This document shows, piece by piece, positions 75 through 63,208 of a DNA stretch of 64,000 bases. The DNA is from Actinomycetota bacterium. Its GTDB lineage: Bacteria > Actinomycetota > Actinomycetes > S36-B12 > UBA5976. The DNA lies in the NCBI GenBank assembly GCA_026393095.1, contig JAPLAV010000047.1, positions 1,430 through 65,429 of the forward strand, in the 5' to 3' direction. The position numbers were made by a program, and so were the translations under genes. Numbering within the stretch: position 1 is the first letter of the stretch; each line of letters opens with the position of its first letter. The notes under the pieces are model-generated. The model was not told the DNA's origin. It made no database searches and worked only from the letters and a program-made list of their open reading frames with translations.

Positions 75-1418
75 ATGGATAAACAAGCAGATTTCGTATT
101 AAGAACAATTGAAGAACGCGATATTCGTTTCGTACGTTTATGGTTCACCGATGTGATCGGTTCCTTGAAATCAGTAGCAGTAGCTCCTGCTGAATTAGAA
201 GCAGCTTTTTCTGAGGGTATTGGTTTTGATGGTTCAGCTATTCAAGGATTTTCTCGCGTCTATGAATCAGACATGTTAGCTAAACCAGATCCTGCAACAT
301 TCCAATTACTTCCTTGGCGAAGTGAAGGACCAGGAGTAGCAAGAATGTTTTGCGACATTCAAATGCCTGATGGTTCACCTTCTTATGCAGATCCTCGTTG
401 GGTATTAAAAAGAACAATGGCAAAAGCTGCAGACATGGGTTTTACTTTTTATACTCATCCTGAAATTGAATTTTACTTATTTGAAAACGATAAGAATGCG
501 GTGAACGTTAAATCACCTGAACCAATTGATCATGTTGGTTATTTTGATCAATCAGCGTCAGGTCCAGGTTATGACTTCAGAAGAAATGCCATCACCATGT
601 TGGAATCAATGGGAATATCTGTTGAATTTTCACATCATGAAGGTGGCCCTGGTCAACAAGAAATTGATTTGCGTTACGCAGATGCTTTAAGTACAGCGGA
701 TAACATCATGACATTTCGTTTAGTTGTAAAAGAAGTAGCACTTTCTGAAGGTGTTCGAGCATCTTTTATGCCTAAACCATTTAGAGATCAACCAGGTTCA
801 GGAATGCATACACATTTATCTCTATTTGAAGGAGATAAGAATGCTTTTCACGAACCAGGTGCTGAATACCAATTAAGCAAAGTTGGCAGAAGCTTTATCG
901 CAGGTATTTTGAAACATGCTCCAGAATTTACTGCTGTAACTAATCAATATGTCAACTCATATAAACGACTTACCGGTGGTGGAGAAGCTCCAGCTTATGT
1001 TTGTTGGGGACACAACAACAGATCTGCTTTGGTGAGAGTTCCAATGTATAAACCATCAAAAGGTCAATCAACTCGTATTGAATACCGAGCACTTGATTCT
1101 GCTGCTAATCCTTATCTTGCTTACTCAGTTCTTTTAGCTGCAGGATTAAAAGGAATTGAAGAAAATTATGAATTGCCACAAGGTGCAGAAGATGACGTGT
1201 GGTCATTAACTGATGCTGAAAGAAGAGCATTAGGCATAACCCCACTGCCAACATCATTGGATGAAGCAATCAAAGTTATGGAAAAAAGTGAATTAGTCGC
1301 TGAAACTCTAGGTGAACACGTATTTGATTACTTCCTTAGAAATAAGAGAAGTGAATGGGAAGAATATCGCAAACAAGTAACTCAATGGGAACTTGATCGA
1401 TACTTACCAGTTCTATAA
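75..1418 (+). CDS. glnA2: Glutamine synthetase type I, GlnA2-type (no adenylylation loop)
   Basis: 447-aa ORF. N-terminus MDKQADFVLRTIEERDIRFVRLWFTDV. GS motifs GSGMHTHLSLF and NRSALVRVP. It lacks the Tyr loop seen in glnA1 and lies upstream of glnE, as in other Actinobacteria. Confidence 0.9.
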   Translation: MDKQADFVLRTIEERDIRFVRLWFTDVIGSLKSVAVAPAELEAAFSEGIGFDGSAIQGFSRVYESDMLAKPDPATFQLLPWRSEGPGVARMFCDIQMPDGSPSYADPRWVLKRTMAKAADMGFTFYTHPEIEFYLFENDKNAVNVKSPEPIDHVGYFDQSASGPGYDFRRNAITMLESMGISVEFSHHEGGPGQQEIDLRYADALSTADNIMTFRLVVKEVALSEGVRASFMPKPFRDQPGSGMHTHLSLFEGDKNAFHEPGAEYQLSKVGRSFIAGILKHAPEFTAVTNQYVNSYKRLTGGGEAPAYVCWGHNNRSALVRVPMYKPSKGQSTRIEYRALDSAANPYLAYSVLLAAGLKGIEENYELPQGAEDDVWSLTDAERRALGITPLPTSLDEAIKVMEKSELVAETLGEHVFDYFLRNKRSEWEEYRKQVTQWELDRYLPVL

Positions 1419-1425
1419 TTAATTC

Positions 1426-1980
1426 ATGACCACAACTGGGAAAAGTAGGAAATCACACTTTCCATCCATTGAAAAGAAATACGGCGAAAAAATGTCGTAT
1501 TGGTTCAAGGTCATGGAAAAGATTAAAGATCGAAAATACCCAGAACAAATTGCTCACTTAAGAGAAAACTATGGGTTTTCTCAAGCTCACGCCAATGCTT
1601 TAGTGATGTTTTCTAAAGGTTCTAAGTCAACTTCTAAATTTAAAGACGATAAAGACTATTTCAAAAGTATTGATCCCAAACAAGCAAAAACAATTAAATC
1701 TCTATATAAATTGATTCAAGCAAAGCACAAGAAACTTGAACTAGTAATTGCCTGGAATCAACCGATGCTTCGAAAAGACAAAAGTTATGTTATTGGAGCA
1801 GGAGTCACAAAAAACTACATTTTACTTAATCCTTTTAGTAAAAGTGTTATTGATAAATTCGGTAAAAAGTTAGCTGAATATGACGTTAAAAAACACACCT
1901 TTGCCGTTCCTAATGACTGGAAAATTGACCAAAAATTAATACTTGCCTTAGTTAAGGCTCGCTTGGATGAGATTAAATAA
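1426..1980 (+). CDS. Conserved hypothetical protein, DUF4287-like N-terminal half plus DUF1801/YdhG-like C-terminal half
   Basis: 184-aa ORF 7 nt after glnA2. The segment SIEKKYGEKMSYWFKVM...YGFSQAHANALV resembles DUF4287. The domain call is by eye only. Confidence 0.55.
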   Translation: MTTTGKSRKSHFPSIEKKYGEKMSYWFKVMEKIKDRKYPEQIAHLRENYGFSQAHANALVMFSKGSKSTSKFKDDKDYFKSIDPKQAKTIKSLYKLIQAKHKKLELVIAWNQPMLRKDKSYVIGAGVTKNYILLNPFSKSVIDKFGKKLAEYDVKKHTFAVPNDWKIDQKLILALVKARLDEIK

Positions 1981-2003
1981 GAGAACGAAAGTAGGCTTTA
2001 TCT

Positions 2004-2750
2004 ATGAATAAACCACCAGTTGTATTGGTTGTGCAAAACGAATTAGATGCACCCATTGGTTATTTAGAAGAATGGCTTTTTGAGCGAGGCGTTGGTATCG
2101 AAGTTATTTATCCTTTTAAAGGTGAAACTGTTCCAACAGAACCAGGGGATTTTGCTGGAGTAATTGTGTTAGGTGGATCTCGCGGAGTTCACGATGAAGA
2201 CCAATGGCCATGGTTAAAACAAGAAAAAGAATTATTAAGAAACGTGATTAAATCTCAAACTCCCACACTTGGTGTTTGTTTAGGCGGACAACTGTTAGCT
2301 GATGCTAATGGTGGCAAAGTTGGCAAAACTCAAAAACCAGAAATTGGCGTTGGTTTTGTTGAGTTCTTACCAGAAGCAAAAAATGATTCACTGCTATCTG
2401 CTGTGGTTGATTCTCCCGTTGCAATTCCAGTTCCTCAATATCATCAAGATGCAATATTGGAATTACCAGAAAATGCCAAATTATTGGTGACAAGTGATGA
2501 TTGTGCAGTGCAAGCTTTTGTTTTAGGTAAAAATGCCTGGGGATTGCAATTTCATCCTGAAACAGACTGGAACATCATGAGTGATTGGTTACTCAGCGAA
2601 GATGAAGTTAGAAAAACTCTGGGCATAACCGATGATTCAGTAGAGAATCAATTTAATGAACTGGGCGAAGGAATGAAAAATACCTGGAGAGCATTAGGTA
2701 TTGCTTTTGCTGACACCGTGGTTGATCACGCCGGTAAACAACAGAAATGA
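2004..2750 (+). CDS. Class I glutamine amidotransferase-like protein
   Basis: 248 aa. Nucleophile elbow GVCLGGQLLA and the LQFHPE His/Glu motif. Its stop overlaps the glnE start (ATGA at 2747-2750). Confidence 0.8.
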   Translation: MNKPPVVLVVQNELDAPIGYLEEWLFERGVGIEVIYPFKGETVPTEPGDFAGVIVLGGSRGVHDEDQWPWLKQEKELLRNVIKSQTPTLGVCLGGQLLADANGGKVGKTQKPEIGVGFVEFLPEAKNDSLLSAVVDSPVAIPVPQYHQDAILELPENAKLLVTSDDCAVQAFVLGKNAWGLQFHPETDWNIMSDWLLSEDEVRKTLGITDDSVENQFNELGEGMKNTWRALGIAFADTVVDHAGKQQK

Positions 2751-5677
2751 CAGAACGCCCGGTAACTGAAACCGGAATATTTTCTCGCTCAGGTTTTAGT
2801 AACCCAAGTAAATCTGCTGAGTTAATAAAAACCCTAAAAGCAGAAATCAATCATGAGTTATTAATTGATGATCTAAGTAAAGTCGCAGATCCTGATAACG
2901 CTTTATTACTTTTGGTGAGAATTGCTGATCAACAGGATAAAAACCTAGATAAAGTCTTAAAAGATGACGATGCTCGATTAAGACTTTTGCAGGTTTTAGG
3001 ATCCTCAAATGGATTAGGTGAGCACCTTGTTACTTATTCAGAAGATGTTTTAGTTTTCCTTGAAGAATCTGCAATTAACAAAGCCAGCACTAAAAATGAC
3101 TTAATCCAAGTATTTACAAAAGCTTCAAAAACCAGCAGAGCAAATCTGGTTCGAGAATATAGAAAAGTTCTACTCGGCCTAGCTTCCCGCGATATTTGTT
3201 ACAAATGGCCACTTCGAGATGTGGCAGCAGAATTAGCTGATGCAGCAGATGCAATATTACAAAGTGCATTAAATACAGCAATTGAAAAGAATCCAGAACT
3301 AGAAAAACAATTTAAATTAGCAATCATTGCCATGGGAAAAGCTGGGGGACAAGAACTTAACTACGTATCTGATGTTGACGTTATTTTTACCGCAGAACCA
3401 TCAAATGGAATTGAAGAACAAGTAGCAATTAGTGCTGCCACCAAAATTGCCACTGAAGTAATGCAATACATCAGTGTGGCAAATGATGGTGGAGAAATTT
3501 GGGAAGTCGATGCGGCCCTTAGACCTGAAGGAAAAGCAGGACCATTAGTTCGAACAGTTGAGCAACACGTTGCTTATTACCAACGCTGGGCTAGCACTTG
3601 GGAATTCCAAGCGTTATTAAAAGCTCGCTTTAGTGCCGGAAACTTAGAACTGGGTAATAAATATTTAGATGAAATAACACCTTTTGTGTGGAAAGCAGCG
3701 AGTAAAGAAAACTTTGTTGATGATGTGCAAAAGATGCGCAAAAGAGTGGAAGAAAACATTGATAACCGAATTGGGGAAAGAGAACTAAAACTAGCTCCCG
3801 GTGGACTTAGAGACGTTGAATTTGCTGTGCAACTTCTTCAATTAGTACACGGTCGAAGTGATGTGATGGTGAGAAGTCCTAACACTTTGGAAGCTCTCGA
3901 TCAACTTGCAACTTGGGGATATATCGGTCGAGAAGATGCTGCAACGTTTTCAACTGCCTACACATTCTTAAGAACACTTGAGCATCGAATTCAATTACAA
4001 AAACTATCTAGAACTCACGTTTTGCCAGAAGAAGATAGTGAATTAAGAAAACTTGGTAGATCTCTTGGATTCATGTCTGAATCAAGTGCTGATTTAGAAA
4101 AGCAATGGCGAAAACATCAATTAGAAGTAAGAAGAATTCACGAAAAGCTTTTCTATAGACCACTACTTAATGCTGTGGCAAGACTTGATGCAGGAAGTGC
4201 TCGTTTAACAATTTCTGAAGCAACTTCCCGACTAAATGCACTTGGCTATAAAGATCCAGAATCAGCTTTGCGACACATTGAATCTTTAACTACAGGCGTT
4301 TCTAGACGTGCGGTAATTCAAAAGACATTGTTGCCAGTTTTACTTTCCTGGTTTGCCGATGGACCAGAACCAGATATTGCATTGCTTTCCTTTAGAAGAT
4401 TAAGCGATGCCCTAGGTAGTACTCCATGGTTTTTAAGATTATTAAGAGATGAATCAGCTGCTGCTGAGTTAATGGCCAAACTTCTATCTTCTAGTAGATA
4501 TGCCACCGATTTATTAATGAGTGCTCCAGAAGCAGTTTCGATGTTAGGAAACTTAGAAGAACTTGAACCAAGAACTCGTGAGCAATATGAAACTGAAATG
4601 AATGCTGTAATTGCACGACATGAAACTGCTGAAAACATAGTTTCAGCTGCCCGATCTTTTAGAAGAAGAGAATTACTAAGAACAGCAACTGCTGATTTAA
4701 GTGGCAGATTAACTACTGAGCAAGTAGGAATTGCGTTAAGTAATGTTTACGCAACTGTTATCGAAACTGCTTTAAAAGGTGCAATTTTAGCTGTTGAGCA
4801 AGAAAGTGGAAAAGAAGTTTCCACCAACATGTGTGTGATTGCCATGGGTCGATTTGGTGGTTTTGAACTTGGGTATGGCAGTGATGCTGACGTGATGTTT
4901 GTGCACGAACCTAAAAAAGATTCAGATCCACAAGAAGCAGAAAAATGTGCGCTAGACGTTGCTAATCGTTTAAGAACATTGTTAATGCAGCCTTCAGTTG
5001 ATCCGCCATTAGAAATTGATGCTGATTTAAGACCTGAAGGAAAAAATGGTCCATTAGTTAGAACTCTTGATTCCTATCTTGCGTATTATCAAAAATGGTC
5101 TGCGCCCTGGGAAGCTCAAGCTTTACTACGAGCACTTCCTGTTGCAGGCGATTTAGCAGTTGGTGAGAAATTTATTCAAGGTATTAATAAAACTCGTTAT
5201 CCAGAAAATGGCGTAAGTGAAGAAAACTTACGCGAAATGAGAAGAATTAAGGCTCGCATGGAATCAGAAAGATTGCCTCGAGGAGCTGATGTAAATCTCA
5301 ATACCAAAATGGGTCGCGGTGGATTAAGTGATGTGGAATGGGTTGTGCAACTGCTACAAATGCAACATGGTTCAAAAAATAAATCTTTAAGAATTACTGC
5401 CACATTGCCAGCATTAAGAGCATGCGTCAAAGCAGAGCTAATTAGTGAATCTGATGCAAAGTCTTTAAGTGAATCTTGGACACTTGCGACCTGGATTAGA
5501 AATGCGCAAATGCTTTCCCGTGCTAAAGCAAATGATCAAATCCCAACAGATATTAATGAATTATCAGCAATTGCTTTTACACTTAATCAGAAATCTCATG
5601 CTCAATTAATTGAGGATTACCGAAGAATAACCAGACGGGCCAGATTAGTTATGGAAAAGATTTTCTACGGCGAATAG
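2747..5677 (+). CDS. glnE: Bifunctional glutamine synthetase adenylyltransferase / adenylyl-removing enzyme
   Basis: 976 aa with two tandem nucleotidyltransferase repeats (GKAGGQELNYVSDVDVIF and GRFGGFELGYGSDADVMF). Each repeat is followed by DAxLRPEGKxGPLVRT. Confidence 0.95.
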   Translation: MTERPVTETGIFSRSGFSNPSKSAELIKTLKAEINHELLIDDLSKVADPDNALLLLVRIADQQDKNLDKVLKDDDARLRLLQVLGSSNGLGEHLVTYSEDVLVFLEESAINKASTKNDLIQVFTKASKTSRANLVREYRKVLLGLASRDICYKWPLRDVAAELADAADAILQSALNTAIEKNPELEKQFKLAIIAMGKAGGQELNYVSDVDVIFTAEPSNGIEEQVAISAATKIATEVMQYISVANDGGEIWEVDAALRPEGKAGPLVRTVEQHVAYYQRWASTWEFQALLKARFSAGNLELGNKYLDEITPFVWKAASKENFVDDVQKMRKRVEENIDNRIGERELKLAPGGLRDVEFAVQLLQLVHGRSDVMVRSPNTLEALDQLATWGYIGREDAATFSTAYTFLRTLEHRIQLQKLSRTHVLPEEDSELRKLGRSLGFMSESSADLEKQWRKHQLEVRRIHEKLFYRPLLNAVARLDAGSARLTISEATSRLNALGYKDPESALRHIESLTTGVSRRAVIQKTLLPVLLSWFADGPEPDIALLSFRRLSDALGSTPWFLRLLRDESAAAELMAKLLSSSRYATDLLMSAPEAVSMLGNLEELEPRTREQYETEMNAVIARHETAENIVSAARSFRRRELLRTATADLSGRLTTEQVGIALSNVYATVIETALKGAILAVEQESGKEVSTNMCVIAMGRFGGFELGYGSDADVMFVHEPKKDSDPQEAEKCALDVANRLRTLLMQPSVDPPLEIDADLRPEGKNGPLVRTLDSYLAYYQKWSAPWEAQALLRALPVAGDLAVGEKFIQGINKTRYPENGVSEENLREMRRIKARMESERLPRGADVNLNTKMGRGGLSDVEWVVQLLQMQHGSKNKSLRITATLPALRACVKAELISESDAKSLSESWTLATWIRNAQMLSRAKANDQIPTDINELSAIAFTLNQKSHAQLIEDYRRITRRARLVMEKIFYGE

Positions 5678-16244: not shown

Positions 16245-17498
16245 ATGACAAAAAGAATTCATCCAGCTTGGGTCGTTGCAGGAATTACCTTTTTAACTTT
16301 AATTGCATCTGCTGGTACTAGATCTGCTCCTTCAGTTTTAATTGTTCCTTTGGAAGAAAGTTTTGGCTGGGGCAGAGACGAAATCTCTTTTGCAATTGCT
16401 GTGAATGTTTTACTCTTTGGTTTAGTTGCACCTTTTGCCGCAGCTTTAATGGAACGCTTTGGTATTAAAAAAGTAGTAATGACTGCCTTAAGCGTTGTGG
16501 GAACAGGTTCTGCATTAACAATATTTATTCAAAAACCTTGGCAATTAGTTGCTCTGTGGGGTGTTGTTGTTGGAGTTGGTACCGGTTCTATGGCGTTGGT
16601 ATTTGCCGCAAGCATTGCTAATAGATGGTTTATTAAAAATCGAGGCCTAGTTATTGGTGGCCTAACGGCTGCAACAGCAACTGGTCAATTAATTTTCTTA
16701 CCCGGATTATCAACACTGGCGATCAATATTGGTTGGCAAAGTGTTTCGATTGCAGTTTCATTGAGTTGTTTTGTGATGGTGCCAATTATTGGACTATTTA
16801 TGTATGAAAGACCTTCATCTGCAGGTGTTACTCCATACGGTGCACCTTTTGATTGGGTTGAGCCAATTCAAAACAAACAAAACGCAGGTCGTGTAGCAAT
16901 TGATTCTTTAAAGCAAGCTTTGAAAGTTAGAAATTTCTGGTATCTGGCTGGATCTTTTTTTGTGTGCGGATTATCAACTAATGGATTAATTGGAACACAT
17001 TTTATTCCAGCAGCTCATGATCACGGAATGATGGAAGTTGCTGCAGCAAGTTTACTTGCTTTGGTTGGCGTATTTGATGTGATTGGCACATTGTTTTCTG
17101 GTTGGTTAACCGATCGAATTGATCCTAAGAAATTACTTTTCTTTTATTACTTACTAAGGGGAGTTTCACTATTCTTACTTCCTTCAATTCTTTTCTCCAC
17201 AATTCATCCATCAACTTTAGTTTTTGTTATTTTTTACGGTCTGGATTGGGTTGCTACAGTTCCACCCACAATTTTGTTATGTAGAACCGTACTTGGACCT
17301 GAAAGAGCCACAGTTGTTTATGGTTGGGTGTTTGCCGCACACCAAATTGGTGGATCGATTGCAGCTTTAGGTGCAGGAATTGCTCGAGTTAAATTTGGGG
17401 ATTATTCCCTTGCTTTTTACACCAGCGGATTGTTATGTGTAATTACTGCTATGGCGGTATTGAAGATAAATTACAAGAAAGAAGTAATTAGTTCTTAA
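16245..17498 (+). CDS. MFS transporter (oxalate/formate antiporter-like)
   Basis: 417 aa with about 12 TM helices in a 6+6 arrangement around a central loop. Confidence 0.8.
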   Translation: MTKRIHPAWVVAGITFLTLIASAGTRSAPSVLIVPLEESFGWGRDEISFAIAVNVLLFGLVAPFAAALMERFGIKKVVMTALSVVGTGSALTIFIQKPWQLVALWGVVVGVGTGSMALVFAASIANRWFIKNRGLVIGGLTAATATGQLIFLPGLSTLAINIGWQSVSIAVSLSCFVMVPIIGLFMYERPSSAGVTPYGAPFDWVEPIQNKQNAGRVAIDSLKQALKVRNFWYLAGSFFVCGLSTNGLIGTHFIPAAHDHGMMEVAAASLLALVGVFDVIGTLFSGWLTDRIDPKKLLFFYYLLRGVSLFLLPSILFSTIHPSTLVFVIFYGLDWVATVPPTILLCRTVLGPERATVVYGWVFAAHQIGGSIAALGAGIARVKFGDYSLAFYTSGLLCVITAMAVLKINYKKEVISS

Positions 17499-17501
17499 AA
17501 T

Positions 17502-17535
17502 AATTATGGCCCCTAATTTCTTAGGGGCCATAATT
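17502..17535. terminator. Bidirectional intrinsic terminator between the MFS gene and the heliorhodopsin gene
   Basis: A perfect 15-bp stem (aattatggcccctaa / ttaggggccataatt) with loop tttc, and T-rich flanks on both strands. It lies 3 nt after the MFS stop and 19 nt after the heliorhodopsin stop. Confidence 0.8.
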
Positions 17536-17554
17536 TAAGTACTTTTGGTTGCAA

Positions 17555-18325
17555 TTAAGCAGGAATCAAAGTACCGGAGAAGATTTGCCAAGCAAGTGCT
17601 GATTTTGCAACCAAACTCAACACAATGTAGGCACGTTCTCCTCTTAAGTAATTACTCCATTTACCTTTGCCTTTGTATTGCAAGTATTGAACTAGGGCAA
17701 AAGAGTTAAAGAAGACAAATAGAGAAATGATGATGCCATAAACAAACCCTGGCACCTGCACATCAGAAGATGATCCTGGTGCGATTACATAAATTAGTAA
17801 TCCCAGCCAAGGAACAATTCCTGCGATGCAACCAAACCAAAATGGCAGTAAATCTCCATCTTTTGGTTGGGTGTATTTCTCTTGTAACCAGCCAAATAAA
17901 ATCATGGAAGCATTAACGCCAAATATTGCCAACAGGGCAACAATGTCTCCGATTCCACAAATTTGAGCAATCAAAACGATCATCAACGATGAGGAGAGTG
18001 AATATTCAACCCAACGAAAAATGTTTTGATTCTTAAGAAGTGAAGCTGAGTATCTCGTAAAGTATTTTTCACTTGCAACAATAAAGTGAAAAAGGGCAGA
18101 AAGTCCCAAGAATAAAGCAACTGCGAGACCAACTGGTGTGCTGAAAATAACTACTGGAGCGCTAAAAGTAGTTCCTGGAGGACCGTTTAAATATGTTCCT
18201 GTAACAGGTAATGCAAAATCATTTGCTAACGCTAGAACTGCCAACATTTGCAAAAGGTGGAATCCTCCTGCAATTCTGTTGAAATTCTTTAAAGACTTGA
18301 TTTGTTTAATTGTTGGCTTAGCCAT
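17555..18325 (-). CDS. heR: Heliorhodopsin (inverted-topology retinal-binding seven-helix protein)
   Basis: 256 aa with seven hydrophobic helices. Lys241 lies in helix 7 (LSLVAKSALAW), Glu107 in helix 3 (FRWVEYSLSS), plus His23 and His80. Lys/Arg clusters occur at the N-terminus and in loops 2-3 and 6-7, giving an N-in topology. From memory the sequence is about 90% identical to heliorhodopsin 48C12. SD AAGGAG lies 5 nt before the ATG. Confidence 0.92.
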   Translation of the reverse strand: MAKPTIKQIKSLKNFNRIAGGFHLLQMLAVLALANDFALPVTGTYLNGPPGTTFSAPVVIFSTPVGLAVALFLGLSALFHFIVASEKYFTRYSASLLKNQNIFRWVEYSLSSSLMIVLIAQICGIGDIVALLAIFGVNASMILFGWLQEKYTQPKDGDLLPFWFGCIAGIVPWLGLLIYVIAPGSSSDVQVPGFVYGIIISLFVFFNSFALVQYLQYKGKGKWSNYLRGERAYIVLSLVAKSALAWQIFSGTLIPA

Positions 18326-18386
18326 AACTTCTCCTTTTCCCTATGTCAGGCTAAAGCACAATTATTGAAAAAAGCTTGTTTAAATG

Positions 18387-18423
18387 AAAACACCCCCAAC
18401 AATTGACTTGTTGGGGGTGTTTT
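18387..18423 (-). terminator. Intrinsic terminator downstream of glnA1 (between glnA1 and the heliorhodopsin gene)
   Basis: An 11-bp GC-rich stem (cacccccaaca / tgttgggggtg) with a 7-nt loop, flanked by an A4 and a T-tract. On the minus strand the hairpin is followed by TTTTCATTT. Confidence 0.85.
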
Positions 18424-18433
18424 ATACGACTTT

Positions 18434-19858
18434 TTAGATGTCGTAGTACAGCTGGTATTCGTAAGGAGTTGGACGCAAACGAATTGGGTCCACTTCTTTT
18501 GTTCTCTTGTATTCAATCCAGGTATCAATTAGATCTGGAGTAAATACACCACCTGCTGTTAAGTAATCCTTGTCCTTTTCTAACGCAGTTAATACTGCAT
18601 CCAAAGAACCTGGGACTTGTGGCACAGATTTTGCTTCTTCTGGTGGTAGTTCGTAAAGATCCTTATCAACTGGTGTTGGCGGTTCGATTCTGTTTTTCAC
18701 ACCATCAATACCGGCCATCATCATGGCAGCAAATGCCAGATATGGATTACATGCAGGATCTGGAACTCTAAACTCAATACGTTTAGCTTTTGGATTAGAT
18801 CCAGTAATAGGAATACGAATTGCAGCGGAACGGTTTCTTTGTGAGTAAACCAAGTTCACTGGTGCTTCATAACCTGGAACTAAACGGTGGTATGAGTTAA
18901 CAGTTGGGTTAGTGAACGCCAGCAACGATGGAGCATGCTTTAACAATCCACCGATGTACCAACGTGCAACATCAGATAATCCGGCGTAACCTTTTTCGTC
19001 ATAAAACAAAGGCTTGCCATCTTTCCACAATGATTGATGACAGTGCATACCTGAACCGTTATCACCAAACATTGGTTTTGGCATAAAGGTTGCGGTGTGA
19101 CCGTTTAGGAAAGCTACGTTTTTCACAACATATTTAAACAACATGATTTGATCTGCTGATTTTAATAATGTGTCAAATTTGTAGTTAATTTCTGCTTGAC
19201 CAGCAGTTCCTACTTCGTGATGTGCGCGTTCAACTTCAAAACCAAGATTAATTAGTGTTGAAGAAATAATGTCACGCAAATCAGCAAAATGATCTACTGG
19301 AGGAACAGGGAAGTAGCCACCTTTAAATGGAGTTTTGTAGCCAAGGTTGCCACCTTCTTCTTCTCTTCCGGTATTCCAGGCTGCTTCAATTGAATCAATT
19401 TTGAAGAATGAACCATGTGGTTGATTATCAAAACGAACTTCATCAAAGATATAGAACTCAGCTTCTGGACCAAAATAAACAGTGTCAGCAATACCTGATG
19501 CTTTTAAGAAAGCTTCAGCTTTAGCAGCAACGTTTCTTGGATCTCTTGAATATGGTTCATTGGTGAATGGATCTCTAATTGAGAAATTCATTGCTAATGT
19601 TTTTGCTTCGCGGAATGGATCAAGATATGCAGTTGTCACATCCGGCATTAACTTCATATCTGATTCGTGAATTGCTTGGAAACCACGAATTGAAGAGCCG
19701 TCAAACATTAATCCGTCTTCAAAAACGGAATCATTAAATGCTTTGGCTGGAATGTTGAAGTGTTGCATAACACCAGGCAAGTCCATGAATCTCACGTCAA
19801 CGAATTCAATATCGTTTTCGCGGATGTACTTGATCGCCTCTGCGGCGTTCTTAAACAT
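18434..19858 (-). CDS. glnA: Glutamine synthetase type I (GSI-beta, adenylylation-regulated)
   Basis: GS motif [11 protein letters not shown] and adenylylation loop [12 protein letters not shown] place the start at ATG 19858, 6 nt after AGGAGG; the ORF track starts one codon earlier at a TTG. Confidence 0.95.
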
Positions 19859-19951
19859 CAATAACCTCCTGATAGAACTTTCTATTGGTTTTTAAAAAGA
19901 GGGCACGACCTCGGGCCATCAATCTGTTGGTTCATAACCTACTAAAGGGGT

Positions 19952-19989
19952 GTATCGCTTCGGTAACCCAATTGTTTCGGCCTTGTAAC
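19952..19989 (-). promoter_or_regulatory. GlnR-type box upstream of glnA1
   Basis: The minus strand reads GTTAC-aaggcc-GAAAC-aattgg-GTTAC-cgaagc-GATAC. This matches the actinobacterial GlnR box gTnAc-n6-GaAAc-n6-GtnAC-n6-GAAAC with one mismatch. Its 3' edge is 93 nt upstream of the glnA1 ATG. Confidence 0.6.
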
Positions 19990-31357: not shown

Positions 31358-32890
31358 TTAATTTTTTGCAAGTTTTTGAGCTAAATGCACAAGTGTTCTA
31401 ACTCCTACACCTGTTCCACCAAAACCGTTGTATCCATAAGGAGCTCCTTCATTAAATGCAGGAGGTGCAATATCAATATGTACCCAAGGTGTTTTTTCGT
31501 CAACAAATTCTTGTAAGAAAGCAGCACCAACCATCATGCCTCCGGCTGGATTTGGAGTGAAACCAACATTTGCAATATCTGCTGTTTTGGAATCAAGAAT
31601 TGTTCTTGATTCTTCTGGAATTTGCATTGGCCACATTGCTTCACCAACTTCTTTGGCACTGGCAAATACTTGATCTCTTGCTTCATCTTTATTAGCCATG
31701 ATTCCTGCAGTTCTAGAACCAAGTGCCACAGTTGCGGCACCAGTTAATGTTGCTAAATCAATTATTAGATCTGGTTTATCAATTTGTGCTCTACCTAGTG
31801 CATCAGCTAAAACAAGTCTTCCTTCAGCATCGGTGTTTAAGACTTCAATAGTTTTTCCACCAAAAGTTGTAACAACATCACTGGGTCTTTGAGCACTTGC
31901 TGAAGGCATATTTTCAGCTAAAGCGGCATAAGCGGTGACATTAATTTTTAAATCAAGATCCATGATCGCTCTTAAGGTTTCAATAACAGTTGCAGCACCA
32001 GCCATGTCACATTTCATGGTGTGCATGGATGCAGGTGGTTTTAATGAAATTCCTCCGGTATCAAAAGTAATACCTTTTCCAACTAACGCTAAATGAAAAT
32101 CAGCACCACGGGATTTGTAAGCAAGGCGAATAAATCTTGGTGGATTGATTGAACCTTGACCAACACCTAAGAGTGCGCCAAAACCTTGTTTCTTAAGTGC
32201 TTTTTCTTCAAGAATTTCTACAGTTAATTTCAAATTCTTTTTGAAAGTCTTTTTCACATAACGTGCAAAAGTTTCTGGATACATGTGACTTGGGGGAGTA
32301 TTAACTAGGTTTCTAACGTTCTTAATTGATTCAGCAATAATTTGGGCTTCCTGAAAACTTGTTTTATTCACAAATAGATCATGAACCAAGATATTTACTT
32401 GCTTTAGAGTTTCAGATGATTTCTCATTTTTAGTTTTGAATTCGGTAAATGAATATGCACCAAGTTCCACTCCCATAGTTACCGCGTGTGTTGCAACGGT
32501 GGTATTTGTGGGCAGAGCAAAAAGTGCTGAGGATTTACCTACTAAAGACCTAGCAGCGACACCTGAGGCTCTTCTCAATGTTTCCATTTCAAGAGGTTGA
32601 GTTTTAGTGACTTTGCCAAGTCCGACACAAAGCACTCCACTTTTAATTGTTAGATAGGCAAGTTCTGATTTCTTACCTGAAAAGTTAGTTAACTTGATTG
32701 CTTCAATTATTTCATTTTTTGATGCTGCTTCAAAAGCAATGGCAGGTTCTAAGAACTCTGGTCCATTATCTGTTTGGGCAAAACCCACAACAAGTACTTC
32801 GTTTGCAGAAATATTTTTGGAATCAGTGAGGCGAGTAATTGACATAAGAAATAGCCTAGTAGCGTTTTGTTCTATGAGCGATTCAGCCAA
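31358..32890 (-). CDS. pepA: Leucyl aminopeptidase (M17)
   Basis: M17 motif NTDAEGRLVLAD. The start is uncertain between TTG 32890 (17-nt divergent overlap with gcvT) and ATG 32845. Confidence 0.9.
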   Translation of the reverse strand: MAESLIEQNATRLFLMSITRLTDSKNISANEVLVVGFAQTDNGPEFLEPAIAFEAASKNEIIEAIKLTNFSGKKSELAYLTIKSGVLCVGLGKVTKTQPLEMETLRRASGVAARSLVGKSSALFALPTNTTVATHAVTMGVELGAYSFTEFKTKNEKSSETLKQVNILVHDLFVNKTSFQEAQIIAESIKNVRNLVNTPPSHMYPETFARYVKKTFKKNLKLTVEILEEKALKKQGFGALLGVGQGSINPPRFIRLAYKSRGADFHLALVGKGITFDTGGISLKPPASMHTMKCDMAGAATVIETLRAIMDLDLKINVTAYAALAENMPSASAQRPSDVVTTFGGKTIEVLNTDAEGRLVLADALGRAQIDKPDLIIDLATLTGAATVALGSRTAGIMANKDEARDQVFASAKEVGEAMWPMQIPEESRTILDSKTADIANVGFTPNPAGGMMVGAAFLQEFVDEKTPWVHIDIAPPAFNEGAPYGYNGFGGTGVGVRTLVHLAQKLAKN

Positions 32891-33980
32891 TCTAATTCAT
32901 TCACCACTTCACCAACGCCATATTGAACTAGGAGCAAAACTTGCACCCTTTGGTGGTTGGGAGATGCCACTTGAATATTCAGGCGGTGGTGTTCTAGCTG
33001 AACATGGCGCAACTAGAGATGCAGTTGGAATCTTTGATGTTTCTCACTTGGGAACCGCAACTTTAACTGGACCAAATGCCGCTGATCGACTTAACGAAGT
33101 TTTAACAAATGATATAAATCGCATTAAGCCTGGACAAGCTCAATATTCCACCATTCTTACTGAAGATGGCACAGTAGTCGATGACTTAATTGTTTATTTA
33201 AGATCAAAAGATGAAGTATTAATAATTCCTAACGCTGGCAACTCAACAACAGTTTTAGAAATAATAAAGAAAAATATGCCCTCTGACATAGTTGTGAAGA
33301 ATCTTCATACCGACATAGCAATCATTGCTATCCAGGGCCCTAAATCAATTGAATTAGTAAATGATCTAGGTCTTCCCACTGATATGGAATACATGTCATT
33401 TAAGGATGTTTCTTTTATGGGCAATTCAGTAACAATATGCCGTACGGGTTATACGGGTGAAAAAGGATTTGAAGTTTTAGTTCCAGCAGCAAATGCTGTG
33501 AATTTTTGGGATGAAGTTTTTGTTAAAGGACAAAAATATGGCGCTAAAGCAGTTGGTTTAGGTGCGCGAGACACTTTAAGAACTGAAATGGGTTACCCGT
33601 TGCACGGCCAAGATATTTCGTTAAAAATCTCACCCCTTGAAGCAGGTCTAAGTTGGGCAGTAATTTTAGATAAACCTAAATTCTTAGGTAAAGATGCTTT
33701 AGTAAAAGAAAAAGCAAATGGAGTAAAAAGAAAACTTGTGGGCATAAAAGCAATTGAACGAGCAATTCCCCGAGGTCACATGAAAGTTATTGATCAAAAT
33801 AATCACGAATTGGGTGAAATTACTAGTGGTACTTTTTCTCCCACTTTGAGAGAAGGAATTGCATTAGCTTTACTTGAATCAAATGTAAAAATTGGCGATA
33901 AAGTTTTTGTTGATGTGCGAGGAAAAAATGTTGAATTCTTGGTGACTAAGCCACCATTTGTGGAATCTAAAGTTCGCTAG
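32874..33980 (+). CDS. gcvT: Glycine cleavage system aminomethyltransferase (T protein)
   Basis: I set the start at ATG 32874 (MSDSANLIHSPLHQRHIELGAKLAPFGGWEMPLEY). Motif GYTGEKGFEV. The 60-codon N-terminal extension in the ORF track is antisense to pepA. Confidence 0.9.
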   Translation: MSDSANLIHSPLHQRHIELGAKLAPFGGWEMPLEYSGGGVLAEHGATRDAVGIFDVSHLGTATLTGPNAADRLNEVLTNDINRIKPGQAQYSTILTEDGTVVDDLIVYLRSKDEVLIIPNAGNSTTVLEIIKKNMPSDIVVKNLHTDIAIIAIQGPKSIELVNDLGLPTDMEYMSFKDVSFMGNSVTICRTGYTGEKGFEVLVPAANAVNFWDEVFVKGQKYGAKAVGLGARDTLRTEMGYPLHGQDISLKISPLEAGLSWAVILDKPKFLGKDALVKEKANGVKRKLVGIKAIERAIPRGHMKVIDQNNHELGEITSGTFSPTLREGIALALLESNVKIGDKVFVDVRGKNVEFLVTKPPFVESKVR

Positions 33981-55101: not shown

Positions 55102-56445
55102 TTATCTGACATAGGTTCTAGCATTTTCGCTGAAGCCTGTGAAAGATTTAGCATCGGTTTTTCCAGGGATCTTTTCCACTTTAATGGTTCCATCAGCATT
55201 TACCTGCACGGCCAACAAACCAACGACTTTATTTGAACCACTCAGGGTGTAACCCTTTTTAGGTTTATTTGGATTATGCGCAGATCCATCTGAGTTCTTA
55301 ATCTCAAATTCAACCAACGAAATAACTGCGGGGGTTGAAGCAGATGAGGTTAGCGTTTTTGGATCAACGTTGCCAACACTCATGAATTGGCATGGGCAGC
55401 CTTCCCAATCTCCAATGCTGTAAATAAATGATTTGTTGTCAACTGCGTCTGGAGCAATCGCTAAATGGGTATCCCAGTAGCCTCGTGCAACTTTGCCATG
55501 ATTGTCATAGCTTGCTGTTTGATCACCTTTACCTCTATAACCATTTGAATCTTTTTCAAACCAGTTACCTTGAGCTGTTCCTTCTTGATCCCAATCAATT
55601 TTGCCATCAAATGGCGCGGTTGCTTTTAGGGATATTGCTTCTAATTTACTTTTCTCGGCAGCTGGAAAATAGTCAAAAGGATTTGCGGTGTAGCTTTTCC
55701 AGGATTCTGCTTGTGAGTATGAATCAGGATTTGCAAATACAAGTTTTACATTCTGATCAAAAGTTGAAAAATCATATCCAGGAGAAACAGAATCATCTGC
55801 AACAGTTTGTCCTGCTTTTACCGCAGCACCCATTGCGATACCTTCACCCAATTTTCCAATGTGAATAAATACTGAATAAAGATCGCAAGAATGTTCAATT
55901 ATGACTCTGTGGTCAGGGTATGGATAATTATTTGTTTTTTGGAAATCCTCAAGACCAACAATTTTGCCATCAGCTGGACTTGTAACTAGGTATGAACCAT
56001 CTGCTACTGGGGTTTGAGAGTTCTCAGGATAGTAAACATAAATGTGATCAATAGGTGTGATGTGTGTACCGAGCATGCCACCCATTGGATAAATGTGTGA
56101 CATTTTTGATACATCACCAATGCCTGCTGTGTATTTATTTACTTTTGAGTCGGCATCACATTGTCCGCCAGAAAAAATTTGCGAAATTGTGCCACCACCC
56201 ATTGGTTTTTCGCCACCTTCTGGTCGCCAAACTAATTTTCCATCACCCATAACTTGGCAAAGTAATTCGTTACCATCTTCGCCTTGTCCACGATCACCTT
56301 CTTTTTCACAAAGAAAACCTTCAGTTACACCACCTGCACTGTTTTGTCCCTGTCCTTGTTGTCCGCCTTGGTCGTCTTTTGGTCCACCACCACAAGCTGT
56401 TAGCAATAAAGAGAGAATTGCGATTGGCAAAATTAGTTTTATCAC
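55102..56445 (-). CDS. Secreted lipoprotein of unknown function with possible degenerate LytM/M23-like domain
   Basis: 447 aa with a GTG start 7 nt after GAGGAG. Lipobox LLLTAC followed by the Gly/Gln-rich linker GGGPKDDQGGQQGQGQ. The segment ADGKIVGL…HRVIIEHSCDLYSVFIHIGKL…VKAGQTVA resembles an M23 barrel but has no HxH motif. Confidence 0.6.
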   Translation of the reverse strand: MIKLILPIAILSLLLTACGGGPKDDQGGQQGQGQNSAGGVTEGFLCEKEGDRGQGEDGNELLCQVMGDGKLVWRPEGGEKPMGGGTISQIFSGGQCDADSKVNKYTAGIGDVSKMSHIYPMGGMLGTHITPIDHIYVYYPENSQTPVADGSYLVTSPADGKIVGLEDFQKTNNYPYPDHRVIIEHSCDLYSVFIHIGKLGEGIAMGAAVKAGQTVADDSVSPGYDFSTFDQNVKLVFANPDSYSQAESWKSYTANPFDYFPAAEKSKLEAISLKATAPFDGKIDWDQEGTAQGNWFEKDSNGYRGKGDQTASYDNHGKVARGYWDTHLAIAPDAVDNKSFIYSIGDWEGCPCQFMSVGNVDPKTLTSSASTPAVISLVEFEIKNSDGSAHNPNKPKKGYTLSGSNKVVGLLAVQVNADGTIKVEKIPGKTDAKSFTGFSENARTYVR

Positions 56446-61966: not shown

Positions 61967-63208
61967 ATGAATAAAAATGAAGTTCATGCAATTGATGAAG
62001 TAAATTCACACGTATTTAGGGCGGGAGAATTACTTAAATTATCCAAAGATCTAATTAAAGCATTTTCTGCCTCTGAAAGAGAAGTTATAATTTCCATTCC
62101 ATTAAGAAGAGAATCTGGTGGCATTGATGTTTTAACTGGTTATCGAATTCAACATTCTTCAGCACGAGGTCCTCGAAAAGGTGGCATTAGATATCACCAA
62201 TCCGTTGATTTGGATGAAGTAAGAGCGTTAGCAAGTCTTATGACTTGGAAAACTGCATTGGTTGATGTGCCATTTGGTGGCGGTAAAGGTGGAGTAACGG
62301 TGGATCCAACCACATTAACTGTTAGAGAAAAAGAAGAAGTAACAAGAAGATGGACCAGAACAATGGTTAACATTCTTGGTCCTCATCGTGATGTTCCAGC
62401 TCCAGATATGGGTACAGATGCTCAAACCATGGCTTGGATTATGGATGAGTATCAAAGAATAAATGGATTTTCTCCAGCTGTAGTAACTGGAAAACCTCTT
62501 GGATTGTTTGGCGCTCCTGGTCGAGAAGAAGCAACAGGACGAGGCGTAATAGGTGTAACACTTGGTGCTTTAGAAAAACTTAAGAAAAATCCAAGTGACA
62601 TAAGAGTAGCCATTCAAGGATTTGGAAATGTAGGAGTATATGCAGCACTAGCGGCTCAAGAAGCTGGCATGAAAGTAGTTGGCTTGGCAGACATCACCGG
62701 TGGAAAAACCAATGAAAAAGGTTTCAATATCAAAGAGATTATTGGAAAATACAAAAAAGTTTCGGAAATCCCAGATGGTAAAGATGTATCAGGCGAAGAA
62801 ATATTGATTATGGATTGTGATTTATTAATTCCAGCAGCCCTTGGTGGAGTGATCAATGATTCAAATCATGAAAAAGTTCAAGCAAAAATCATTGTGGAGG
62901 GTGCAAACCAACCATTAACGCTTTCGGCAGATACTGCACTGCAAAAGCGTGGGGTAGTAGTCGTGCCGGATATTTTGGCAAACGCAGGAGGTGTGATGGG
63001 TTCTTATTTTGAATGGACGCAAAATATTCAAGAATTTATATGGCCAATCGAAAAATTCAGAAACGAACTCGACACTAGAATGAAGATTGCCTTTGATTCA
63101 ACGTGGGAAGCATCCCTTAAATATGGTTGCGATTTAAGAACAGCAGCTTTTGTGGTTTCAGTTGAACGTGTTGCCACAGCGTTTAAGCTTCGAGGAGATT
63201 TACTCTAA
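61967..63208 (+). CDS. gdhA: Glutamate dehydrogenase (Glu/Leu/Phe/Val dehydrogenase family)
   Basis: 413 aa. Catalytic Lys motif VPFGGGKGGV and dinucleotide motif QGFGNVG. Confidence 0.9.
   Translation: MNKNEVHAIDEVNSHVFRAGELLKLSKDLIKAFSASEREVIISIPLRRESGGIDVLTGYRIQHSSARGPRKGGIRYHQSVDLDEVRALASLMTWKTALVDVPFGGGKGGVTVDPTTLTVREKEEVTRRWTRTMVNILGPHRDVPAPDMGTDAQTMAWIMDEYQRINGFSPAVVTGKPLGLFGAPGREEATGRGVIGVTLGALEKLKKNPSDIRVAIQGFGNVGVYAALAAQEAGMKVVGLADITGGKTNEKGFNIKEIIGKYKKVSEIPDGKDVSGEEILIMDCDLLIPAALGGVINDSNHEKVQAKIIVEGANQPLTLSADTALQKRGVVVVPDILANAGGVMGSYFEWTQNIQEFIWPIEKFRNELDTRMKIAFDSTWEASLKYGCDLRTAAFVVSVERVATAFKLRGDLL

Follow-up and report, generated by a model that had tools for sequence, protein, structure and literature searches.

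A HeR-48C12-type heliorhodopsin gene beside glnA1 in a freshwater actinobacterium: probable separate transcription and a possible link to glutamine synthetase

Introduction

The protein encoded on fosmid 48C12 was the first heliorhodopsin (PDB 6SU3/6SU4, 6UH3) and serves as the standard in structural and spectroscopic work on the family, but what it does in the cell is still not settled. Here we describe a heliorhodopsin gene (HeR) and the glutamine synthetase gene glnA1 directly upstream of it in a 64,000-nucleotide stretch of DNA (the window) from an Actinomycetota bacterium (assembly GCA_026393095.1, contig JAPLAV010000047.1, positions 1,430 to 65,429). The window is part of an annotated contig of a metagenome-assembled genome, in which the two products are MCX6457951.1 (HeR) and MCX6457952.1 (glutamine synthetase).

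A heliorhodopsin that acts on a glutamine synthetase (GS) was described in Actinobacteria bacterium IMCC26103, where AbHeR binds the adjacent AbGS with a Kd of 6 uM in vesicles and kcat/Km in the light is raised 2.2-fold over that of AbGS by itself (Cho et al., 2022, PLoS Biol, PMC9529153). An earlier note on the present DNA, made from the sequence alone, had mentioned such a study, and both results, binding and light stimulation of GS, are indeed in it. The AbHeR-AbGS operon resembles the window in that a subfamily-1 acI heliorhodopsin lies directly downstream of, and co-oriented with, a type I GS gene, and its proposed mechanism is a regulatory rhodopsin that binds GS via its cytoplasmic loops. 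Strand-specific transcripts covering HeR, GS and NAD-synthetase genes have been recovered (Bulzu et al., 2021). Cho et al. (2022) had already drawn fosmid 48C12 with its upstream GS gene, which is co-oriented with HeR, has a product about 37% similar to AbGS and is separated from HeR by a gap "much larger" than in AbHeR operons, and they doubt that 48C12 binds this GS (PMC9529153).

Other non-pumping rhodopsins also lie beside a candidate partner that would be modulated by direct contact, namely OcHeR with the OmrDE ABC transporter (PMC11109279), heliorhodopsin with photolyase (cited in that paper), and sensory rhodopsins with their transducers. For these pairs single operons have been predicted or shown, whereas the window genes are predicted to be separate units and their partnership is only a candidate one. 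The arrangement in the window and the light-GS hypothesis attached to it are both already in the literature; added here are a distinction between GS paralogues, evidence that the two genes have separate transcripts, and the finding that HeR adjoins glnA1 in a narrow range of lineages.

The heliorhodopsin locus

Protein identity and gene architecture make this, very probably, a HeR-48C12-type locus of a freshwater acI/Nanopelagicales actinobacterium. The HeR open reading frame (ORF) matches Pfam PF18761 over profile positions 1-242 of 242 (E=1.5e-98, 329 bits, cutoff 26.7) and the NCBIfam heliorhodopsin equivalog NF038020 (341.5 bits, cutoff 100), and its product is identical to HeR-48C12 (PDB 6SU3) at 237 of 256 positions (92.6%). 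Residues H23, H80, E107, S237 and K241 are present and invariant in the heliorhodopsin alignment, giving the Schiff-base Lys in the SxxxK motif of the seventh transmembrane helix (retinal motif as defined in PMC12817590), the Glu counterion and the His23/His80 pair. Near identity to the studied 48C12 protein suggests a non-pumping, retinal-binding photoreceptor with inverted topology (cytoplasmic N-terminus). The window comes from a different strain than the fosmid, whose locus was compared through the description of Cho et al.; the co-oriented upstream GS at a large distance and the similarity of that GS to AbGS (about 37%) both match window glnA1, which is 37-39% identical to type-B GSs (defined below).

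Relatives were compared in two sets of 80 HeR loci each, one drawn from GTDB species representatives and one from metagenomes, with neighbouring GSs typed against the glnA1 and glnA2 products of the window. The GTDB set is the best 80 of at least 595 relatives, and the statistics apply to the acI-like subfamily. Three contexts were distinguished: type A with glnA1 upstream of HeR, type B with a gene for a GS of 430 amino acids (aa) directly upstream, and type C with no GS gene in view.

On the reverse strand of the window the order is GlnR box, glnA1, a hairpin, a 61-nt spacer containing a Shine-Dalgarno sequence, HeR and a bidirectional hairpin. Both genes are on this strand, glnA1 is directly upstream of HeR, and the gap between them is exactly 108 bp. 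The earlier note had located all of these elements, and each was found again at its place. The features are as follows.

19952 to 19989, reverse strand: GlnR box of a-b-a-b form, GTTAC-n6-GAAAC-n6-GTTAC-n6-GATAC; the sole match in the window, with 0 mismatches, conserved
19936 to 19941, reverse strand: candidate -10 element of glnA1, TAGGTT (TATGTT in loci L001 and L002), predicted from a conserved alignment block, 10 nt past the last GlnR half-site
18434 to 19858, reverse strand: glnA1, GSI-beta glutamine synthetase of 474 aa with adenylylation motif (Pfam, NCBIfam, PDB match, alignment)
18387 to 18423, reverse strand: predicted intrinsic terminator of glnA1, with a 16-bp stem and a 5-nt loop, then UUUUCAUUU (folding, conservation)
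18348 to 18353, reverse strand: candidate -10 element of a HeR promoter, TAGCCT, within the block TANNCT(G/T)A (conservation)
18331 to 18336, reverse strand: Shine-Dalgarno sequence AAGGAG, 5 nt 5' of the HeR ATG (seen in the sequence, conserved)
17555 to 18325, reverse strand: HeR, heliorhodopsin of 256 aa (Pfam, NCBIfam, PDB match)
17502 to 17535, both strands: predicted bidirectional terminator hairpin, common to HeR (reverse) and the convergent MFS gene (forward) (folding)
16245 to 17498, forward strand: MFS transporter gene, convergent with HeR, a variable insert (profile search, neighbour comparison)
75 to 5677, forward strand: glnA2, a DUF4287 gene, a class I glutamine amidotransferase (GATase) gene and glnE, which make up the second half of the ancestral gln cluster and lie 12 kb from HeR

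The glnA1 start codon (ATG) is preceded by AGGAGG. The product matches the Pfam domains Gln-synt_N and Gln-synt_C, scores 681 bits against TIGR00653 (cutoff 429), has M. tuberculosis GlnA1 as its best PDB match (E~1e-227), and carries the GSI-beta insertion of about 25 residues (alignment columns 141-165) as well as the adenylylation Tyr motif. A cognate adenylyltransferase is present in the window, since the glnE ORF (2747-5677) has two GlnE and two GlnD_UR_UTase domains.

The pattern GTNAC-n6-GAAAC-n6-GTNAC-n6-GANAC occurs once in the 64 kb, at the GlnR box, with none expected (100 shuffles), and the box fits the published a-b-a-b consensus gTnAc-n6-GaAAc-n6-GtnAC-n6-GAAAc (PMC10704036). It is kept in the 48C12 clade and in L001 and L002 although the flanks have diverged. 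No OmpR-family regulator, as a candidate GlnR gene, was found among the scanned ORFs of the window. Actinobacterial -10 elements follow the rule TANNNT, and the candidate glnA1 element is conspicuous for its conservation when the upstream regions are aligned. The glnA1 leader (19897-19921, reverse strand) also contains a conserved GGC(C/A)C...GTG(C/T)C mini-hairpin followed by a T-run, flagged as terminator-like by a simple scan; a riboswitch or attenuator reading of this leader was rejected (5-pair mini-hairpin, z = 0.18, covariation in 1 of 5 pairs, no Rfam match).

Transcription

Both hairpins were missed by the simple terminator scan (their stems run into A/U tracts), and folding was used instead. 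The hairpin behind glnA1 (18423-18387) has a perfect stem of 16 bp, where the earlier note had counted 11, with a dG of -26.1 kcal/mol (z=-7.95; 0 of 200 shuffles as good), and is followed by UUUUCAUUU. The one behind HeR (17535-17502) has a 15-bp stem, with dG of -24.4 and -23.0 and z of -5.1 and -4.0 on the two strands, respectively. The glnA1 terminator is conserved in 8 of 8 close relatives, with a nearly invariant right arm and one U-tract change in L081. Two substitutions in its left arm (L081 and L086 types) give G.U pairs, which keep the stem on the glnA1-sense RNA and are mismatches on the antisense strand. The earlier note's argument that the hairpin speaks for separate transcripts gains from this pattern.

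Downstream of the terminator the spacer is variable except for the Shine-Dalgarno sequence and the block TANNCT(G/T)A, some 28-30 nt 5' of the HeR start codon. All 11 type-A sequences have the block at the same spacing from the ATG, L001 and L002 included, where the upstream genes are others, and it is also kept in L164, behind a beta-CASP gene as in L002. In L001, two terminators (that of glnA1 included) and the HeR -10 block lie between glnA1 and HeR. The earlier note had seen no convincing -35/-10 pair in the 61-nt spacer; the promoter scan likewise gave no convincing -35 there, so this part stands, and comparison with relatives adds the conserved -10-like block. A sigma-70 hit in the spacer was rejected, its -35 being the T-tract of the terminator, and the sigma-70 scan gave 4 sites against 7.8 expected. 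Because the TANNCT(G/T)A block is conserved, a promoter with only a -10 element is proposed for HeR. The conserved terminator and -10 block suggest that glnA1 and HeR are probably separate monocistronic units; some read-through past the glnA1 terminator is possible. Neither Rfam (gathering thresholds) nor ARAGORN gave a hit in the window.

Conservation of the gene pair

Type A (glnA1 93-99% identical) is limited to the 48C12 clade plus L001 and L002. The gene order around HeR, lipB-lipA-DUF4191-RDD-glnA1-108/109 bp-HeR-(MFS)-SacDH, recurs in nine metagenomic contigs whose HeR is at least 91% identical. In a neighbour-joining tree of 161 heliorhodopsins, type A is monophyletic and type B is interleaved with type C; at 65-70% identity the resolution of the tree is too low for counting gain and loss events. 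Further out, HeR is 3.4 kb away from glnA1 in L164 (glnA1 93% identical), and L165 (86% identical) has no HeR downstream of glnA1.

For 65 species representatives the sequence extends at least 1.5 kb upstream of HeR; in 13 of these a GlnA2-type GS gene is directly upstream, and in two glnA1 lies upstream, at 589 bp or 3.36 kb. Of the families found upstream of acI heliorhodopsins, GS is the most frequent (12 of 70), followed by UbiA, Zn-ADH, hydrolase and the photolyase-related DPRP. By a rough estimate, GS would be the immediate upstream neighbour by chance in about 0.2% of cases (2-3 GS genes among about 1,300-1,500 genes). In acI bacteria HeR and GS are associated far more often than expected by chance, and the type B form of this association is experimentally supported. 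The neighbourhood statistics for which the earlier note had called are favourable to GS as a neighbour in general; the adjacency to glnA1 is restricted to one clade and is eroding.

The interval between glnA1 and HeR is an insertion hotspot in relatives. It holds an ORF of 99 aa without a family and with its own flanking hairpins in L001 (3850-4440), and a reverse-strand P-type ATPase gene plus a beta-CASP/RMMBL (RNase J-like) gene in L002 (5245-8607) and L164 (8474-11714). Downstream of HeR, the MFS gene (16245-17498) occurs only in the sub-lineage nearest the window (L082, L083, L162, L163), in which it is inserted in comparison with fosmid 48C12. It is absent in L081 and L084-L088, where SacDH follows HeR downstream, immediately in L081 and L088 and after 0.7-1.6 kb in the rest.

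Comparison with the AbHeR operon

The HeR-linked type-B GSs of 430 aa carry exactly the published AbGS residues S54/A55/Y154/P238/E302. In locus L067 the HeR matches 11 of 11 published AbHeR residues and the context, panB / NAD synthase / GS / HeR / leuA, is the published operon. Type-B GSs are 68-71% identical to window glnA2 and 35-39% identical to glnA1; in the alignment they lack the GSI-beta insertion and the entire adenylylation loop; their best PDB matches are GSI-alpha enzymes, and TIGR00653 is barely reached (429.8 against a cutoff of 429.15). By these sequence comparisons the published AbGS is a GlnA2-type (GSI-alpha) paralogue and not the GlnA1 of the window; AbGS as a GlnA1 orthologue was rejected on residue fingerprint, identity, indels and context. 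Because AbGS-type enzymes are without the adenylylation loop, the action of light on a GlnE-controlled enzyme would be without experimental precedent.

The GS gene of the AbHeR-AbGS type thus encodes an enzyme of 430 aa without GSI-beta insertion or adenylylation loop, whereas that of the window encodes an adenylylatable GSI-beta GlnA1 of 474 aa. The gap is 24-36 bp without a terminator in the former and 108 bp with a strong terminator in the latter, which does not have the form of a single unit. The AbHeR operon has NAD synthetase upstream and panB adjacent; the window has instead the GlnR box, a divergent RDD gene and DUF4191-lipA-lipB, and no NAD+ synthetase gene in this context. The HeR of the window is 63-70% identical to AbHeR-type proteins. 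The third intracellular loop (ICL3) reads YKGKGKW in the window clade and YKKVGKW in AbHeR, and the second (ICL2) TQPKDGD and E(Q/T)PGNGG, respectively. At the positions of the GS-binding lysines K216, K217 and K220 of AbHeR, the window protein has K218, G219 and K222, plus an extra K220. The earlier note had taken basic loops as the route to GS; the loop lysines do not discriminate here, being equally conserved in heliorhodopsins without a GS neighbour. ICL3 lysines were rejected as a marker of GS-binding heliorhodopsins on the same ground; since they are equally conserved in proteins without a GS neighbour and one is Gly here, they give no partner-specific signal.

All HeR-linked GlnA2-type GSs sampled (L067, 8672-9964, and 24 other type-B loci) are about 430 aa long and lack 15 aa where GlnA1 has its adenylylation loop. 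The glnE-linked glnA2 genes of the window (75-1418) and of L166 (12872-14209) keep this 15-aa loop, "DDVW(S/A)LT..ERRA(L/M)G". HeR linkage, lost glnE adjacency and loop deletion coincide in the sample of GlnA2-type GSs. Window glnA2 shares Ala55 and Pro238 with AbGS.

The gln genes and the wider window

On the forward strand, glnA2 (75-1418), the DUF4287 gene (1426-1980), the class I GATase gene (2004-2750) and glnE (2747-5677) follow each other; gcvT (32694-33980) and gdhA (61967-63208) lie 14 kb and 44 kb from HeR, respectively, both among unrelated genes. The earlier note had listed glnA2, glnE, a class I amidotransferase, gcvT and gdhA, all of which are present, and had placed the photoreceptor inside a nitrogen-assimilation core. 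This second point, a "nitrogen island", was rejected, as glnA1, glnE, GATase and glnA2 are an inherited frame, seen without HeR in the compact order glnA1> PEMT> <glnE <GATase <glnA2 NADsyn> of L166 (glnA1 76% identical), and the two remaining genes are distant.

The frame corresponds to the actinobacterial glnA1/glnE/glnA2 cluster under GlnR (e.g. the GlnR boxes of S. coelicolor glnA), and Rv2220-Rv2222c of M. tuberculosis is presumably another such cluster. The window keeps the order lipB-lipA-DUF4191-RDD-glnA1 ... glnE-glnA2 and the a-b-a-b GlnR box upstream of glnA1, and differs from the compact cluster by about 12 kb of unrelated genes, HeR first, between glnA1 and glnE. The GATase gene overlaps the start of glnE by 4 bp, and a GATase-glnE pair downstream of glnA2 is also found in L166 (9064-12875), which suggests that glnA2-(DUF4287)-GATase-glnE may be a conserved unit.

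Homologues of the DUF4287 protein (1426-1980, forward strand), 54-65% identical, are encoded beside HeR, or no more than 7 kb from it, in some 11 type-C loci (L012, L029, L056, L063, L075-L077, L109, L131, L137, L143), mostly upstream of HeR and on the opposite strand. Their position hints that HeR may once have been inside the gln cluster. Elsewhere in the window, an ORF of 447 aa (55102-56445, reverse strand) has no Pfam family above threshold, its sole match being a weak one to Peptidase_M23 (E=1e-4, 22.8 bits, cutoff 28.7).

Discussion

The observation with which this work began, HeR directly behind glnA1, is confirmed, and the interpretation that the earlier note had built on it is partly supported. 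We tentatively favour a 48C12-type locus of two head-to-tail monocistronic units, in which HeR would have its output via a bound partner, with GS as the likeliest candidate class. In this explanation glnA1 would be driven by a GlnR-box promoter, with control by nitrogen limitation suggested by the motif, and its transcript would end at the conserved strong intrinsic terminator. HeR would have a weak promoter of its own, with a -10 element only, about 20 nt 5' of the Shine-Dalgarno sequence, as predicted from conservation, and its transcript would end at the bidirectional terminator. A light-driven conformational change would then pass through the cytoplasmic loops to the bound partner protein. 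By the example of AbHeR and AbGS the likeliest class of partner would be glutamine synthetase, either GlnA1, from the adjacent gene, or GlnA2, whose gene is 17 kb off. That any GS is a direct target of HeR in this organism, an argument from analogy, is plausible though short of probable; that the target is GlnA1 specifically is rather unlikely. A light input to GlnA1 is, by the same analogy, possible.

Several points weigh against this explanation. All experimental and co-transcription evidence concerns a loop-deleted GlnA2-type GS, not GlnA1, and even there the light effect is small, with 1.1-1.2x product and an enzyme kcat/Km of 5-12 M-1 s-1 (PMC9529153). No GS is within view in 50 of the 65 species representatives. 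The glnA1-HeR adjacency is confined to one clade and decays within it, from 108 bp to 589 bp plus a small ORF, to 3.36 kb, to absence. K217 of AbHeR is Gly in the window clade, and the same ICL3 lysines are conserved in 57-72 of 79 heliorhodopsins without a GS neighbour. Finally, both HeR-GS adjacencies fall inside the old glnA1/glnE/glnA2/NAD-synthetase/panB region and may have one shared historical origin.

The alternative that fares best is that the adjacency is historical and neutral, HeR residing in the old gln region of a streamlined genome, acting with another partner or role (candidates put forward for other heliorhodopsins include a membrane transporter, a photolyase-type protein, and functions in lipids or oxidative stress) and leaving GlnA1 insensitive to light. 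It is credible without being probable, and a non-GS role with historical adjacency is about as likely as a GS partner. The two genes appear to be separate transcription units, their adjacency is eroded in L001, L002/L164 and L165, and in the shallow 48C12 clade the entire region is syntenic, so that conservation there weighs little. Neighbours of HeR are very diverse (44 Pfam families among 70 upstream neighbours), an ABC transporter (PMC11109279) and photolyase are published as partners of other heliorhodopsins, and Cho et al. themselves doubt the binding of 48C12 to its adjacent GS. Neutrality has nevertheless to account for GS being by far the most enriched neighbour class in this subfamily, and for HeR being found behind two different GS paralogues in two HeR clades, which is improbable under random position unless there was one ancestral position. 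The pattern may reflect either convergent recruitment, which would favour a general functional link between HeR and GS, or the rearranged remnant of one old residence. A single old residence in the gln region is suggested because both positions fall in the ancient cluster and DUF4287 homologues neighbour HeR.

A second alternative keeps the two genes in one read-through operon, with the hairpin as a leaky terminator or attenuator and HeR co-induced with glnA1 by GlnR, coupling the dosage of photoreceptor to that of GS. Co-orientation at 108 bp, the missing -35 in the spacer, the interrupted U-tract (UUUUCAUUU) and the true co-transcription of the type-B arrangement would all suit it, but a GC-rich stem of 16 bp and -26 kcal/mol is a strong terminator, the -10-like block persists where the upstream gene is not glnA1, and L001 has two terminators between glnA1 and HeR; we consider it improbable. 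Equally improbable is action of HeR in trans on the GlnA2-type enzyme (75-1418), with the glnA1 neighbourhood irrelevant, since this enzyme, though of the orthologue class of AbGS (68-71% identity, Ala55 and Pro238 in common), retains the 15-aa loop missing from all HeR-linked GSs and is still linked to glnE, and the ICL3 and ICL2 loops of the window HeR clade differ from those of AbHeR.

Returning to the favoured explanation of separate units with a protein partner, its boldest form is that 48C12-type heliorhodopsins bind and light-modulate adenylylatable GlnA1, so that acI heliorhodopsins would be wired to two GS paralogues according to lineage, to GlnA1 in the 48C12 clade and, in the Planktophila-type clade, to a loop-deleted GlnA2. 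We regard this as unlikely on present evidence. A weaker corollary is that HeR was originally inside the ancient glnA1/glnE/glnA2 cluster, of which the present arrangements would be rearranged remnants.

There are two HeR-GS arrangements, the studied one being a tight operon with a loop-deleted GlnA2-type GS and the other, in 48C12 and the window, consisting of genes that are probably transcribed separately, beside GlnA1. The split shows which enzyme pairs to assay, and it cautions that annotation by itself does not justify extending the AbHeR result to GlnA1. If the bold form were true, light would be a third layer of control on GlnA1, besides GlnR (transcription) and GlnE (adenylylation), and a light-modulated GlnA1 in the most abundant freshwater bacterioplankton would have a bearing on nitrogen cycling in lakes.

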